A DNA stretch of 64,000 bases from an uncultured Thermotogae bacterium (GTDB taxonomy: Bacteria > Bipolaricaulota > Bipolaricaulia > CAYUCE01), in assembly GCA_964443275.1 (NCBI GenBank), contig CAYUCE010000002.1, positions 358 to 64,357 on the forward strand. Reading direction: 5' to 3'. The notes under the pieces are model-generated. The model did no database searches and was not told the origin of the DNA. It saw nothing but the letters and a program-made list of their open reading frames with translations. How positions within the stretch are numbered: position 1 is the stretch's first letter; every line of letters begins with the position of its first letter. A program made the translations under genes and the position numbers. This document shows, in pieces, positions 4,001 through 35,391 of this stretch.

Positions 4001-4451
4001 TTTCTTGTTCAATTAGGGAGGGTACTTCTCCACGCATGCACCCGGTTAGGGCAATTAAACCCTGGTGGTATTCGCGCAGCAGTTCGTCGTCTACCCGCGG
4101 TTTATAATAAAAACCCTCAGTAAAACCCCGGCTGGTAAGTTCGATGAGGTTGCGGTAGCCCTGATTGTTTTCGGCCAGTACCACTAAATGATAGTATTTG
4201 GCGTTGCTTTTAGCTCCTTTTTTCTCAAAGCGACTTCCGGGGGCTACATATAGCTCGGCCCCTATTATGGGTTTTATGCCCGCCTTCTTGGATTTTTGAT
4301 AAAACTCTACAGCCCCTCTTATGGCTCCGTGGTCGGTCAAGGCCAGGGCTTGCATCCCTAACTGTTTAGTTTTATTTAAGAGATCATCAATCTTGCAGGC
4401 TGCATCCAGCAGGCTATATTCCGAATGAGTATGTAGGTGAACAAAGTCCAT
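1029..4451 (-). CDS. dnaE: DNA polymerase III alpha subunit
   Basis: 1140 aa. N-terminal PHP domain (MDFVHLHTHSEYSLLDAACKIDDL) followed by polymerase core, fingers and OB-fold segments. Confidence 0.95.
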   Translation of the reverse strand: MDFVHLHTHSEYSLLDAACKIDDLLNKTKQLGMQALALTDHGAIRGAVEFYQKSKKAGIKPIIGAELYVAPGSRFEKKGAKSNAKYYHLVVLAENNQGYRNLIELTSRGFTEGFYYKPRVDDELLREYHQGLIALTGCMRGEVPSLIEQERMEEAGAAVHKLQDIFGQNNLFLELQNHGLDAQQTINKKLEKISQRESIPTVVTNDVHYLDREDKLAHEVLLNIQTNKTLDDPTRRIYEGEEYFLKSPQEMEEAFPNQKEALQRTLEIADRCEVNLEFDRTLLPAFSLPSDYHDPGAYLRDLTFKKAKERYQADLPTEVKERLKHELSVIKEIGYETYFLIVRDFIQFAKKNHIPVGPGRGSVVGSLVSYCLGITDVDPLKYGLIFERFLSKSRVSPPDIDIDFCVKRRDQVIDYVKDKYGQEKVSQIATFDRLAAKSAVRDVARVMGKPYSTGDKIAKLIPFGSSIQAALSKVRQLKKMYEESEDIKKLIDISKRLEGLARNVSTHAAGVVIAPDKLTQYVPLQRLSSGEILTQFAMDELESVGLLKMDFLGLRNLTVIDETVKKIEEVTADQIDLDELSLTDPKTYQLLKDGKTKGVFQLESSGMKNLVKRMQPTDFEDIIALLALYRPGPLESGMADDYIARKKGNKEIQYPHPELQEVLEDTYGLPIYQEQLMQMARVLAGFSLEEADVLRKAIGKKNRRLLLKMKKEFTKGCVDNGIDEAKAEGLFANMEKFARYGFNKSHSTAYALISYWTAYLKANWPAFYMASLLTSVSGNNDKVAEYIQECKDLGLDVLPPDINQSDVDFTPHGDQIRFGLFAIKHVGRSAVQSILKKRSQGGKFENFYDFCRRVDVEKVNREVIISLIKTGAFDQFATRKALLAELDKGLALGQLAKEERRSGQRSFFSNKEEMMGQTTQEEDLQEEFSESKLLKFEKELLGLYVSGHPLLEYKDILSLYGSCSLKEVSQNREGQKLYLGGRVDQVKVINTRNDKLMAFLTLEDLTHQLEVIVFPNSFEKSRAWLEEDKLIFLEGRTEKRNGKLQVITEEIFGLDEVEKRMRLEVNLTLNCEELTKRFLEELKGVLNSGSGQHPIYIHLREGGRKEVIELGESFKIRSQDIDKLYGLIGDGKISIKRKQI

Positions 4452-4460
4452 GGTTTTTTG

Positions 4461-4778
4461 TTAAGGACCTATAATTATATATTTTTCTTCTCCCGGTTTG
4501 ATTAACCCCAATTCCTTTCTGGCTAAATATTCTATGTATTCCAAATCGTCCTTTTTGCCCAAAAGCTCTCGTAGCTCCTCACTTTCGGTAAGTAATTTAG
4601 CCCGTTTGATTAATTGGTCATCTATTGCTGATTTAATGGAAGATATATGCCTGGACCTAAGATAGAAAACGGAACTGACCAATAAGATTATTAAAATAAG
4701 GACGGATACAAAGGTGATTCTGGCCGTTCTTTTCGCCCGTTCTCTTCGCCTCAGGGTACTTTTCTTTACTGCTCCCAT
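4461..4778 (-). CDS. FtsB/DivIC-like septum formation initiator (small bitopic coiled-coil protein)
   Basis: 105 aa with a basic N-terminus, one TM helix, a coiled-coil region and the C-terminal ARKELGLIKPGE motif typical of FtsB/DivIC. Confidence 0.5.
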   Translation of the reverse strand: MGAVKKSTLRRRERAKRTARITFVSVLILIILLVSSVFYLRSRHISSIKSAIDDQLIKRAKLLTESEELRELLGKKDDLEYIEYLARKELGLIKPGEEKYIIIGP

Positions 4779-6244: not shown

Positions 6245-6781
6245 TTAAAGGCTGGCTACATATTTTTTTCTTACCCGGTTAAAAAAATTTATGTATTCTT
6301 CAGATTTGTAATCCGGATAGGTCCAGGGGAAAGGTACGAAACTATCCCCTTCGAATTTTAAAGTTACTTCCCCGTAGATTCCGCTTTTTAAATAAATGCG
6401 GTGGGAGTAATTTTTGGTAGTGGCCAGTACCAATTTAGCAGGAGCCAGATAACCGGGATCGATGTTAACGGGCCTGGCCACCGGGGGACTTGTTTTTTCA
6501 CGAAAAGATTCCTCCAACTGATTAGTAAAAATCTTTATACTGGGCAGCCGGTCGGGATTTATTAACTCCCGGAAGGCTAAAAACTGCCTCATAAGATTTT
6601 GGCCCATAGTGGATTGGTAATAATCGGTCCAATGGAAGGAAAAGATATCGCTCATTTGATCCACTGGGCCAAATTCTTTTACCAACGAATCCTTAGCTTC
6701 CGAAAGCCAGTTTTTGCGGCCGGCTATCAAACCACTTATTAGCTTCACCGGCGGGGGTTTGCTGATTTTACCCATCTGCAA
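6245..6781 (-). CDS. Hypothetical protein, possibly DUF4416-like
   Basis: 178 aa soluble protein with no catalytic motif recognised. The family assignment is from memory only. Confidence 0.3.
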   Translation of the reverse strand: MQMGKISKPPPVKLISGLIAGRKNWLSEAKDSLVKEFGPVDQMSDIFSFHWTDYYQSTMGQNLMRQFLAFRELINPDRLPSIKIFTNQLEESFREKTSPPVARPVNIDPGYLAPAKLVLATTKNYSHRIYLKSGIYGEVTLKFEGDSFVPFPWTYPDYKSEEYINFFNRVRKKYVASL

Positions 6782-8410: not shown

Positions 8411-8573
8411 GTGGGAGGCAAATCCTACACAGAGTAGAATTATGTTTATAGACAGGGCTTTCTCTATTTAATACACTCCTAATTTTTTAAGTTTTGATAT
8501 AAACTTCTGCATCACTTTTTATAGCGAACCTTTGTTAAAGATACTATCCTGTCGACTGATCTTCCTAAAAGAT

Positions 8574-9077
8574 TTACTCATCCCTTGGAAACCAAGGGAT
8601 AAATTTATTGGTCTTTTGGGCATATTGCTGGTATTTTTGGTTATCCTTATATCTTTTCTCAAGAAGTGGGACTCCGGAAACTTTTAGAAGTAAATAATCA
8701 ATAATAATGGGGCTGAAAACCGCCGCCCATCCATACCGAGTGGACAAAACGATAAGAAAGATTCCCCACCACAATAAGGCTTCTCCAAAATAATTTGGAT
8801 GCCGAGAATATCTCCATAATCCCTTTCTCATTATGTCCCCTTTGGACTTTTTTTCATGCTTTATAAACTGGCTTAGTTGATAGTCACCCACAACCTCAAA
8901 GAAAAAGCCCACGAGCCAAATAGCTAGCCCCATGATATCTACTATATTGAACCCCACTTTTGGATAAACGTTTACCAGAATTAAAGGGTAGGCGATAAGT
9001 AAGAGCAGAAAACCTTGCAACATAAATATATTGGTGAAGCTTTTGATCCAGGCAAGACTTCCCCATTTTTCTCTCAT
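8574..9077 (-). CDS. Membrane methyltransferase family protein (isoprenylcysteine carboxyl methyltransferase / DUF1295-like)
   Basis: Contains the RHPNYFGEALLWWG motif in a polytopic membrane protein of 167 aa. Confidence 0.55.
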   Translation of the reverse strand: MREKWGSLAWIKSFTNIFMLQGFLLLLIAYPLILVNVYPKVGFNIVDIMGLAIWLVGFFFEVVGDYQLSQFIKHEKKSKGDIMRKGLWRYSRHPNYFGEALLWWGIFLIVLSTRYGWAAVFSPIIIDYLLLKVSGVPLLEKRYKDNQKYQQYAQKTNKFIPWFPRDE

Positions 9078-9124
9078 CTTTTGATATCTGAAGTCCTCTG
9101 GCTTTTGTTTTAAGTCTTCTGACG

Positions 9125-9415
9125 GTGTCCGCTAATGCTCAGTGTGGATATGGGACTTCATGTCCTGACTGCTGTGCCTATTTAGGCACAGATAAGGATA
9201 GCTATCAAGTGGGCGAGGAAGTTACTTTAATTTTCTCTAATCCATCCAATTTCGACTTTGTGATTGAGAGGGTCTATATCCAGCGGCAGTATTCTCGCTC
9301 CTGGCTATTTTCCAAGGGAGACGTAGTTTATAGCTACGAGTTTCCTGAAACCGTTATCCCTAGCGTTGAATGGACATGGAAGTGGGATCAGAAGGATAAT
9401 TATAGCAAATCTTAA
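9125..9415 (+). CDS. Small hypothetical protein with Cys-rich N-terminus
   Basis: 96-aa ORF starting at GTG, with CGYGTSCPDCC. No homology recognised. It may be non-coding. Confidence 0.2.
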   Translation: MSANAQCGYGTSCPDCCAYLGTDKDSYQVGEEVTLIFSNPSNFDFVIERVYIQRQYSRSWLFSKGDVVYSYEFPETVIPSVEWTWKWDQKDNYSKS

Positions 9416-9651
9416 TTTAGGTTAAGCTAAACAAATCTCACCATCGGGAAATCTCTACTTCAACTGAGTTCTTGGTTATGGGAAGCTATATGGATAACCT
9501 GCTGAGGATAGGGTATATCGATACCGTTTTCATCAAATTCTTTCTTGATTGATTTCCATGGCTATTTACGTACCTATCAGGGTCAAGTTTAGATAATTTG
9601 ATCATCTTGTAAATCCACCTATAAATTTAGAGCTCTTTTATACCTCATTTA

Positions 9652-32315: not shown

Positions 32316-34190
32316 ATGGGTGAAAGATCCGATCTTAAAAATCTTAAAAGTAACCTCGGAGTTTTGCCAAACCAACCGGGAGTCTACTTATTTCGGGACA
32401 AAAGCGGCCGGGTAATATATGTAGGAAAGGCTGCATCGCTTAAGAAGAGGGTCAGTTCCTACTTCAGAAATGGATCACCTGCCGATCCCAAGACGAATTC
32501 TGTGGTAAGCGAGGCTGCCGATTTTGATTACATAGTAGCCAACTCAGAACAAGAAGCCCTAATCTTAGAATGTAACTTGATAAAGGAGTACAAGCCAAGA
32601 TATAACTCCAGACTCAAAGATGACAAGAAGTTCCCCTACTTAAAGCTTACCACCGCAGAATTGTTTCCTCGCTTACTTATAGACCGTCAGGTGGCAAATG
32701 ACGGTAGTAAATATTTTGGTCCCTATACCGATGTTCAAATGATCAGAAATAATTTAAACTTATTGCGGCGCCTGTTTCCGGTAAGGACCTGTAGTGATCG
32801 GATAACCTCCGAGGGTAGTACCAGGCGGGACCGTCCTTGCCTTGATTATTGGATTGATCAGTGCAGCGCCCCTTGCGTCAAAAAAATAGATGTACAAGGA
32901 TACCAAAAAATAATAAAAGACCTGATAAGCTTTCTTTCTGGAGGGAAAAGAAAGGTCCTTTCTCAGCTTAAAAAAAAGATGAAAGAGCATTCCGAAAAAT
33001 TGGAATTTGAGCGGGCGGCAAGGGTAAAGAACCAGATACGGGCTTTCGAGAAACTAACCAGCTCCCAGGTTATAACTACCTCCACCTTAGATAACCGTGA
33101 CTGTATAGGGATGGCCGTAAACCATGACCTTTGTTGTTTGGCTGTTCTTTTTATCCGAGAAGGTAGGGTAAAGGGTAAAGAGACTTTGTTTATGGAGGTA
33201 CCCCCGAAATCTAGGCCGGAAGAGATCCTGTCCTCCTTTGTCAAGCAATTTTATATGGATGCCTCCTTTATACCCAAAGAAATTCTTCTTCCTAATAATT
33301 TGGATGATAAAAAAACTACCGGCAACTGGCTTTCAGGAAAAAAAGGGAATAAGGTGTATTTGAAGGTTCCTCAAAGAGGAGATAAACGAAAAATAGTCAA
33401 AATGGCAAACCGTAATGCCCAATTGACCCTGGGAGAAGAGGAGATTAAGCATAAATCCGACCGTAAAAGGAATCAAATATTAAAGGAGCTGCAGGATGCT
33501 TTAGGTTTAAGAAAAATACCGAACCGAATGGAGGCATATGATATATCCCAGGTAGGGGGAACCAAAGCGGTAGGGTCCATGGTGGTATTTGAAGGTGGAC
33601 TTCCCAAAAAATCTGACTACCGCCGATTTAAAATAGAAACTGTACAGGGGGTCGACGACTACGGAATGATGGAAGAGGTGCTTATGAGAAGATTTAAACA
33701 CGGCCTGCGGGAGCAAAAAGCAACCCCTCAAAGTTTTTCTGAATGGGCACACTGGCCTGACTTGATACTTATAGACGGGGGAAAGGGCCAGCTTAAGGTC
33801 GCTCAAAACGTTCTTACTAAACTTGATTTAACTGAGGTAGAAGCGATGGGGTTGGCCAAGGAAAATGAAGAGATTTTCTTACCCCGGCGGAAGTCACCGC
33901 TAAACCTGCCTTCGGATTCCAAAGTCCTTCACCTTTTGCAACATATCCGAGATGAAGCACACCGCTTTGCACTTAGTTATCATCGCACGCTTAGAAAAAG
34001 GAGCATGAGTAAATCCGCTTTGGATTCAATCCGCGGAGTGGGGCCGGCCAGAAAAAAAGCTATTTTGAACCATTTTGGTTCCCTGGCTAATCTTAAAAAT
34101 GCCTCGCTGGCCGAAATCTCCTCTGTACCCGGCCTTCCGGAAAAAGTTGCTCAAAGAATTTATCGAAATTTCTCCCAAAATGTAAGCTAA
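32316..34190 (+). CDS. uvrC: Excinuclease ABC subunit C
   Basis: GIY-YIG (GVYLFRDKSGRVIYVGKA), a UvrB/C-interacting domain, and C-terminal RNase H-like and HhH domains. Length is 624 aa. Confidence 0.95.
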   Translation: MGERSDLKNLKSNLGVLPNQPGVYLFRDKSGRVIYVGKAASLKKRVSSYFRNGSPADPKTNSVVSEAADFDYIVANSEQEALILECNLIKEYKPRYNSRLKDDKKFPYLKLTTAELFPRLLIDRQVANDGSKYFGPYTDVQMIRNNLNLLRRLFPVRTCSDRITSEGSTRRDRPCLDYWIDQCSAPCVKKIDVQGYQKIIKDLISFLSGGKRKVLSQLKKKMKEHSEKLEFERAARVKNQIRAFEKLTSSQVITTSTLDNRDCIGMAVNHDLCCLAVLFIREGRVKGKETLFMEVPPKSRPEEILSSFVKQFYMDASFIPKEILLPNNLDDKKTTGNWLSGKKGNKVYLKVPQRGDKRKIVKMANRNAQLTLGEEEIKHKSDRKRNQILKELQDALGLRKIPNRMEAYDISQVGGTKAVGSMVVFEGGLPKKSDYRRFKIETVQGVDDYGMMEEVLMRRFKHGLREQKATPQSFSEWAHWPDLILIDGGKGQLKVAQNVLTKLDLTEVEAMGLAKENEEIFLPRRKSPLNLPSDSKVLHLLQHIRDEAHRFALSYHRTLRKRSMSKSALDSIRGVGPARKKAILNHFGSLANLKNASLAEISSVPGLPEKVAQRIYRNFSQNVS

Positions 34191-34225
34191 GACTTGGTCC
34201 TAAAACCTTCAATTCCTCTTTTCTG

Positions 34226-34546
34226 AAGTTTTGATATAAGCAAGAAACTAGATTGTAGGTCGCAAGTGAACAGAAACTTTCGTGATATGTAGGGCATTTC
34301 CTTCGGGAATCCCGAATCGGTGTGACGGGGCTCCCTCGCTTACGCTCGGTCACACATATGCGCGCACCTCTCTCGGAATTCCCTCGGATGCCCAATGGAT
34401 AGGGAGGAGAGGATAAATTTTTCTTGGAGCTTAAGAATCTGTTTGACGAGCGTTAGCGAGGAGTTATGCAGCGAGGAAGAAAATTTTATCCTCTCCCCTA
34501 AGCGAGCAGTATAGCAAAATAGCTGGAAAGCTTATATCAAAATTTT
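34226..34546. other. Highly structured intergenic element with nested and interleaved inverted repeats (candidate structured RNA or MITE-like repeat)
   Basis: Outer inverted repeat ttttgatataagc (34229-34241) pairs with gcttatatcaaaa (34530-34542). A 20-bp inverted repeat has arms at 34406-34425 and 34477-34496. Hairpin gtgtgac (34320-34326) pairs with gtcacac (34349-34355). The hairpin loop segment 34330-34350 is complementary to 34445-34463. There are also short palindromes gggaatccc and ggaattcc. Confidence 0.4.
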
Positions 34547-34632
34547 AGTCCCCTTTTAAGTAACTTGACAGCCCGATAACTATCCGCTATTATTTTATAT
34601 AATGAAATCTTAATTTTATTAAAGGAAATAGC

Positions 34633-35391
34633 ATGGAGAAGACTCGGAAATCACGAACTGTCCTAAAAGCACTTGAAGTCTTAGAAGAGTTATCCAAGCT
34701 CGAGGAAGGGTTAACAAATGCGGAGCTTTCTCGCCGCCTTGGTCTTCATCCCAGCACCAGTTACCGGCTTCTAAATACTCTGGTCAGCAAAAATTATTTG
34801 AGTAAGGAAAATGGCCTTTACCGGCTGGGACATAAGATCCTGCAGCTTAAGTACTTGGCCCGCCGGGAGGAGAATTTGCGCCAGCGGGCACGTCCCTGGT
34901 TAATCAAGCTGGAGAGTGAAACCGGTTTTACCACAAACTTGGCCATCCTTGATATGCTTAATGCTGTACCGATTGAAATTGTAAGCGGTTCAAAGAATTT
35001 AGTAGTAAACAAAAACCTAGGCAAGCCAGTCCCACTTCATGCCACTGCAGTGGGTAAATGTCTGCTTGCATATCTACCCAAATCTGAGAGAAAAAAGCTC
35101 CTGGCTCAACTGAAACTTCAAAAGTTGACTCCGAAAACTATAACTAAGAAGGAGAAGCTACTTGAAGAGCTTAAAACCATCAAAAGACGCGGGTTTGCGG
35201 TAGATGATGAAGAGTTTGTAACCGGAATAAGATGCGTTGGAGCCCCCATATTTTCAAAGAAGGAAGCCCTAGCTGCCATAAGCGTCTCCAGCTTGTCTTC
35301 TCAGCTAGATGACGACCAGATAGGCAAAGTAGCAAAACAGGTCATTAGGACAGCGAAGGAAATCTCCTATCAGGCGGAAAATATTTCCTGA
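34633..35391 (+). CDS. IclR-family transcriptional regulator
   Basis: N-terminal wHTH (LTNAELSRRLGLHPSTSYRLLNTL) and a C-terminal IclR effector domain. A TTGACA-17-TATTAT promoter-like sequence lies at about 34563-34591. Confidence 0.85.
   Translation: MEKTRKSRTVLKALEVLEELSKLEEGLTNAELSRRLGLHPSTSYRLLNTLVSKNYLSKENGLYRLGHKILQLKYLARREENLRQRARPWLIKLESETGFTTNLAILDMLNAVPIEIVSGSKNLVVNKNLGKPVPLHATAVGKCLLAYLPKSERKKLLAQLKLQKLTPKTITKKEKLLEELKTIKRRGFAVDDEEFVTGIRCVGAPIFSKKEALAAISVSSLSSQLDDDQIGKVAKQVIRTAKEISYQAENIS

Follow-up and report, generated by a model that had tools for sequence, protein, structure and literature searches.

Ends of an IS4-like insertion sequence family flank a hairpin-rich intergenic element, very probably a MITE, between uvrC and iclR of an uncultured bacterium

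Prokaryotic MITEs are shorter than 500 bp, carry terminal inverted repeats (TIRs) of 4–30 bp, are flanked by direct repeats, lie in intergenic DNA and form very stable stem-loops; they are derived from insertion sequence (IS) elements, which mobilise them in trans (PMC10969869). The IS4 family is characterised by the YREK signature Y-(2)-R-(3)-E-(6)-K, by target duplications of about 7–13 bp and by CA or CT ends (PMC2266710). For the ISPepr1 subgroup an end consensus of YT-AA-YTT---A, direct repeats of 7–8 bp and an IS length of 1.5–1.6 kb have been described (PMC2266710 Table 1).

Here we analyzed an element of 326 bp (34223-34548) in a 64-kb stretch of DNA, which we refer to as the window in its whole length. 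The element is located between uvrC (32316-34190, UvrC protein according to Pfam) and iclR (34633-35391, IclR-family regulator according to Pfam), and we consider it very probable that it is a MITE, i.e. a small non-autonomous transposon. Judged from the sequence, its ends are shared with an autonomous IS4-like family. Every MITE feature that we examined was found at this locus, namely the size, the TIRs, the flanking duplication, the lack of a transposase, the ends shared with an IS, and the stem-loops. Compared to described prokaryotic MITEs such as QMITE2 of Coxiella burnetii and MITEAba12 of Acinetobacter (PMC10969869), the element belongs to the same size class and has TIRs, a repeat in the range of 7–9 bp and no transposase; it is likewise intergenic, can form a very stable stem-loop and has ends in common with an autonomous IS. 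However, its interior differs in two respects: it is not AT-rich (48% GC, with a core at 34300-34375 of 56–66% in a genome of 43%) and it is unrelated to that of other short elements with the same ends.

The spacer between uvrC and iclR comprises 442 nt, and the element starts 32 nt behind the stop codon of uvrC. Subtracting the element and one copy of the duplication leaves a compact spacer of 107 nt; were an empty-site allele present, the element-free junction would read AATTCCTCTTTT joined directly to AAGTAACTTGACA. The left TIR (34223-34241, plus strand) has the sequence CTGAAGTTTTGATATAAGC and the right TIR (34530-34548, minus strand) has the reverse complement CTAAAATTTTGATATAAGC. Together they form an outer inverted repeat of 19 nt, which is within the range known for MITEs and longer than the 13 bp given in the preliminary description; 17 of the 19 positions pair, and both mismatches are G.T on the plus strand. 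Directly abutting the left TIR we found a 9-bp sequence, TCCTCTTTT (34214-34222), that matches 8 of the 9 positions of TCCCCTTTT (34549-34557), which abuts the right TIR. This target-site duplication is T/C-rich and imperfect, and 9-mers in the window match at 8/9 or better with a background frequency of 2e-4, which rises to 1e-3 when T-rich 9-mers are considered. Taken by itself, the outer repeat is not unusual: inverted repeats of at least 17/19 at a spacing of 100–1000 nt were observed twice in the window and about once in shuffled sequences. For this reason, the weight of the argument rests on the match to the IS termini and on the flanking duplication.

The interior (34242-34529) is non-coding and holds the internal inverted repeats I1, I3 and I4. 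In its right half a long hairpin spans 34406-34496, with arms of 20 nt (34406-34425 and 34477-34496, 19/20) and a loop of 51 nt. Its score of 17 was not reached in any of 300 dinucleotide shuffles of the interior, which gave 7.7 +/- 1.1 and at most 12; for the second-best internal repeat, the score of 12 was never reached in 300 interior shuffles. In the left half a local hairpin (34313-34362) is formed around a 7-bp core, GTGTGAC at 34320-34326 and GTCACAC at 34349-34355, and this small hairpin (7–8 bp) is marginal compared to shuffled sequences (p about 0.06). The loops of the two hairpins carry the arms of I3 (34334-34348 on the left and 34447-34461 on the right), which are complementary to each other at 14 of 15 positions. 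All of these pairings had been proposed in the preliminary description, and our analysis confirms that the inverted repeats are real and non-random. When the element was aligned with its own reverse complement, we obtained a score of 66, compared to -10.6 +/- 18.7 for shuffled sequences, and therefore the element can be regarded overall as one long imperfect palindrome.

To trace the ends we searched for the end sequence in other genomes. A scan of one genome per species resulted in 39 scattered matches, nearly all of them due to chance; the degenerate pattern used here, with K at position 6, covered the left-end form only and missed the right-end variant, which reduced the sensitivity. Rejected as chance matches were 90-nt tandem repeats in coding sequences of Patescibacteria as well as CTP synthase and a second unrelated ORF in L023. 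The Patescibacteria gene (L003 3170-5600, also L047 and L059) contains more than 20 tandem repeats of 90 nt (30 codons), each with a near-copy of the 19-mer, a chance resemblance. A Chloroflexi MAG (L005) contains a 105-bp element whose inverted ends are identical over the first 15 nt; the 8-bp duplication on its two sides, ATCTCCCT, is perfect. With the exact 19-mer, 15 loci were found in metagenome contigs. Among them were three short elements (428, 314 and 232 bp) that carry the end sequence as an inverted repeat at their boundaries; a 573-bp candidate (L053) is weaker, with 12 of 15 terminal bases. An element of 1802 bp with perfect ends (L055) was found by the DNA-only scan, and a further scan match (L050) encodes a homologue of the L055 transposase, 54% identical, beside the repeat.

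Independently of the DNA pattern, four further IS copies were fetched by protein similarity to the L055 transposase. These homologues are 78, 67, 65 and 61% identical to it, and all four copies are bounded by the same 18-bp termini with 0–3 mismatches, so that five distinct IS copies of ~1.8 kb (L055, L063, L064, L066 and L067) share these termini. At both ends of L064 we found CTGAAGTTTTGATATAAG, which is identical to the first 18 nt of the left end in the window (18/18). An alignment of 20 ends showed that positions 1–18 are conserved and that the similarity breaks off abruptly beyond them; the left TIR of the window element fits the consensus of these 20 ends, and 19 of the 20 start with 5'-CT. 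The right TIR agrees with the family consensus at 16 of 18 positions and deviates at positions 3 and 6, its A at position 3 being unique among the 20 ends. Tn5/IS50 and Tn10/IS10 have ends of 19 bp that start with CTG and a target duplication of 9 bp, and beyond the first bases these ends differ in sequence from those of the window element.

Duplications in the family measure 9, 9, 8, 8 and 7 bp: 8/9 positions match at the window element, the IS L067 has a perfect 9-bp duplication (9/9, TACGGAGAA), L005 has 8 bp and two MITEs on L052 have 8 and 7 bp. No duplication was seen at L046, L055 and L066, three of the eight paired elements of the family. The four other short elements (105, 232, 314 and 428 bp) have the same ends and unrelated interiors, three of them with duplications of 7–8 bp, and a comparison of the interior of the window element with the other short elements of the family and with sampled IS copies showed no similarity. 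On the 104-kb metagenome contig L052 two different MITEs of 314 and 232 bp (4011-4583) with the same ends are located 27 nt apart, each with its own 7–8-bp duplication. In L066 (502-3210) a full-length IS of the family is located ~100 nt upstream of, and divergent from, a gene for an IclR-family regulator, which is probably a coincidence. One more site in the window, TTTAAGTTTTGATATAAAC at 8486-8504, agrees with 15 of the 18 positions of the family end, 14 of them contiguous, and has no nearby partner; shuffled sequences contain 0.17 such sites per window. It is possibly a solitary remnant of this IS family.

The parent element L055 is filled by one ORF of 565 aa, and the family ORFs are single and 562–565 aa long. 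The L055 ORF matches PF01609 (DDE_Tnp_1) with an E-value of 1.2e-10 and 41.9 bits (cut-off 23). Its best NCBIfam model is that of the IS4 family, at 55.5 bits, which is below the curated cut-off of 115. D189, D281 and E421 are invariant in the family transposases, and so is the motif Y414-x2-R417-x3-E421, followed by lysines at E+5 and E+8. A phmmer search against the PDB chains of solved structures gave no informative match, and therefore none to the Tn5 transposase, and a comparison with plasmid records was likewise without an informative match. Since the score is below the NCBIfam cut-off and neither solved transposases nor plasmid records are matched, we classify the parent, by its sequence features, as IS4-like and not as a curated IS4 member. 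At least 1256 related transposases were found at E<=1e-20 in the protein collection, and these relatives are mostly encoded on stand-alone contigs of ~1.8–2.3 kb, which is the behaviour expected of a repeat. The transposase family seems to be an IS4-like group of environmental bacteria that is insufficiently described.

Regarding the described subgroups, the parent IS resembles the ISPepr1 subgroup (PMC2266710) in its single unframeshifted transposase ORF with DDE_Tnp_1, and its 5'-CT ends match the consensus of this subgroup at 8 of 9 positions, with duplications of 7–9 bp compared to 7–8 bp. However, the transposase is longer (562–565 aa) and the IS has a length of ~1.8 kb instead of 1.5–1.6 kb. 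The spacing of the lysine also differs from that in the YREK signature of the IS4 family, with 4 or 7 residues between it and the glutamate instead of 6.

From these similarities the following course of events can be proposed for the MITE. The 18–19-bp TIRs are the predicted binding and cleavage sites of an IS4-like DDE transposase of 562–565 aa encoded by a ~1.8-kb IS. The transposase, made elsewhere and supplied in trans, would bind both ends, and the element would be excised by cut-and-paste, by analogy with the IS4 family (PMC2266710). It would then have been inserted 32 nt past the stop codon of uvrC, a short distance upstream of the promoter of iclR, where staggered cuts 9 bp apart and subsequent repair would have produced the flanking duplication of TCCTCTTTT and TCCCCTTTT. 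The nested and interleaved hairpins would be part of the palindromic interior that is typical of MITEs.

The same hairpins had been interpreted in the preliminary description mainly as alternative folds of a riboswitch or attenuator or as a pseudoknotted ncRNA, with a MITE as the secondary reading. A structured ncRNA at this locus could be a riboswitch or attenuator, a pseudoknotted sRNA or an element of the uvrC 3'-UTR, either independent of the MITE or exapted from its interior; we regard it as improbable. Several observations are in line with it: the RNA folding has an MFE of -113 kcal/mol and z-scores of -3.85 on the plus and -4.5 on the minus strand, two internal repeats are beyond 300 of 300 shuffles, I3 links the left and the right hairpin loop in a pseudoknot-like manner, the core is GC-rich for this genome, and the outer stem has G.U pairs at its two mismatches on the plus strand. 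However, the two strands show the same folding excess, which results mostly from the terminal repeats, as the z-scores change to -1.6 (plus) and -2.5 (minus) without them, and the unrelated interiors of the sister MITEs fold equally well (z between -2 and -5 on both strands). Because the sister interiors are unrelated yet fold alike, and because z drops without the TIRs, we read the interleaved pairings as the palindromic make-up of a MITE. In addition, the termini belong to an IS family, and no homologous sequence that could be used for covariation was found in the databases and relatives searched. Rfam 15 gave no match at gathering scores in the whole window, and at E<=10 on both strands of 33900-34900 no Rfam family was matched apart from chance-level hits of eukaryotic miRNA and snoRNA models.

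The transcription signals around the element point in the same direction. A promoter-like site for iclR, TTGACA-17-TATTAT, is located at 34565-34593 on the plus strand and agrees with the consensus at 11 of 12 positions, the assignment being a consensus match alone. As had been reported for this promoter, it follows the element and does not overlap it, the -35 hexamer being located 7 nt past the right copy of the duplication, which places the element outside the leader of iclR. The region 34000-34800 contains no terminator-like site, and the sole promoter-like site facing into the element (34571-34542, minus strand) is weak, with 9 of 12 matches. Nothing in the data requires an RNA switch, and it is the secondary reading of the preliminary description, a MITE, that agrees with the IS4-like family ends and the flanking 9-bp duplication. 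There is a small chance that the interior of the MITE was exapted later: transcription reading through from uvrC, or starting at the weak promoter on the minus strand, would then yield a structured RNA in which the two loops at 34334-34348 and 34447-34461 could form a kissing or pseudoknot interaction. If so, this RNA could act as a stabiliser or terminator of the uvrC 3' end, or as an sRNA.

Two further explanations concern the ends themselves. The element could be an in-situ remnant of a full-length IS whose transposase gene was lost by internal deletion, so that it never moved as a short unit. The same ends and the same duplication would be expected for such a remnant as for a MITE, and only a single copy is known. 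However, Pfam, tblastn and blastn searches showed no trace of a transposase gene or of subterminal IS sequence in the interior, which instead is an imperfect long palindrome, and the family clearly makes short derivatives elsewhere; in our view the remnant has a slim chance of being the correct explanation. Alternatively, the outer arms could be operator sites of IclR that act by DNA looping, the resemblance to IS ends being coincidental. The right arm is located 17 nt upstream of the -35 hexamer and a related decamer, TTTTATATAA, overlaps the -10 region, which would fit an operator, but the identity to an IS terminus over 18 of 18 positions and the flanking 9-bp duplication would not be expected of one. 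Moreover, the decamer is not clearly enriched, with 19 matches in the window compared to 10.3 +/- 3.6 in shuffled sequences (2 of 100 shuffles reach 19), and we consider the chance of this explanation to be close to negligible.

For the MITE itself, the divergence of this copy gives a hint at its age. Because the right end carries two substitutions, one of them at a position that is conserved elsewhere in the family, and the duplication carries a third, the copy is probably old, an ageing relic that is possibly no longer mobile. As 7 nt separate the right duplication from the -35 hexamer of iclR, the insertion could affect this promoter. Recognizing the element as mobile DNA removes a false lead, as its many hairpins gave it the appearance of a switch in the intergenic DNA of a deep-branching, uncultured bacterium. 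Furthermore, CTGAAGTTTTGATATAAG is the 18-bp end that defines an IS4-like family which is abundant and barely covered by curated models or annotated plasmid records, and which gives rise in several phyla to short derivatives whose interiors are unrelated. Screens for ncRNAs could use this end sequence to mask such elements.

We also looked for coding content, other RNA classes and further copies. Among all open six-frame pieces of the element, Pfam gave only a sub-threshold match to ORC6, and a pseudogene remnant was rejected on these grounds. A retron ncRNA, which had been considered in view of the outer repeat and the long hairpin, was rejected as well, the neighbouring ORFs being without a reverse-transcriptase domain. 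ARAGORN found no tRNA or tmRNA. Within the 64-kb window there is neither a homologue of the family transposase (tblastn) nor a second copy of the element (blastn), and a distant blastn search against plasmids and phages did not find the element. A 76-aa pseudo-translation gave no candidate in the protein database, and six degenerate peptide patterns from the interior had no confirmed match in IMG/VR and the JGI metagenomes. In three close relatives other genes are found downstream of uvrC, and no DNA resembling the element was seen there. A literature search with the end sequence returned nothing relevant, and one with the run accessions SRR7048218 and SRR7048220 was without a result.

The host appears, from its UvrC protein, to belong to a phylogenetically isolated lineage: the nearest relative, from a Candidatus Bipolaricaulia MAG, is 51% identical, and the next relatives, at 45–50%, are named in their sources as Halanaerobiales (Fuchsiella), Chloroflexi and Clostridia. 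On a Bipolaricaulia MAG contig (L042), the contig end downstream of uvrC (about 6390-6600) encodes what we take, by eye, to be similar to the N-terminus of an IS5/IS1182-type transposase (MKRKREAYPTDLTDKEWALLEPLIP...). Elsewhere the exact UvrC and IclR proteins were found only on two Logan contigs of 1–2 kb (SRR7048218 and SRR7048220). These contigs stop at 34301 and start at 34474, so that each breaks off ~75 nt within the element, at roughly symmetric positions; a loss of coverage over the palindrome, a repeat, or chance in an assembly of low coverage could account for these breakpoints. In a side region of the window (8574-9651), a DUF1295 ORF on the minus strand (8574-9077) matches its Pfam model only from position 74 onward and is followed by a stretch of 574 nt that contains no ORF of at least 150 aa. 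This ORF could be a frameshifted or truncated gene or could have a miscalled start.
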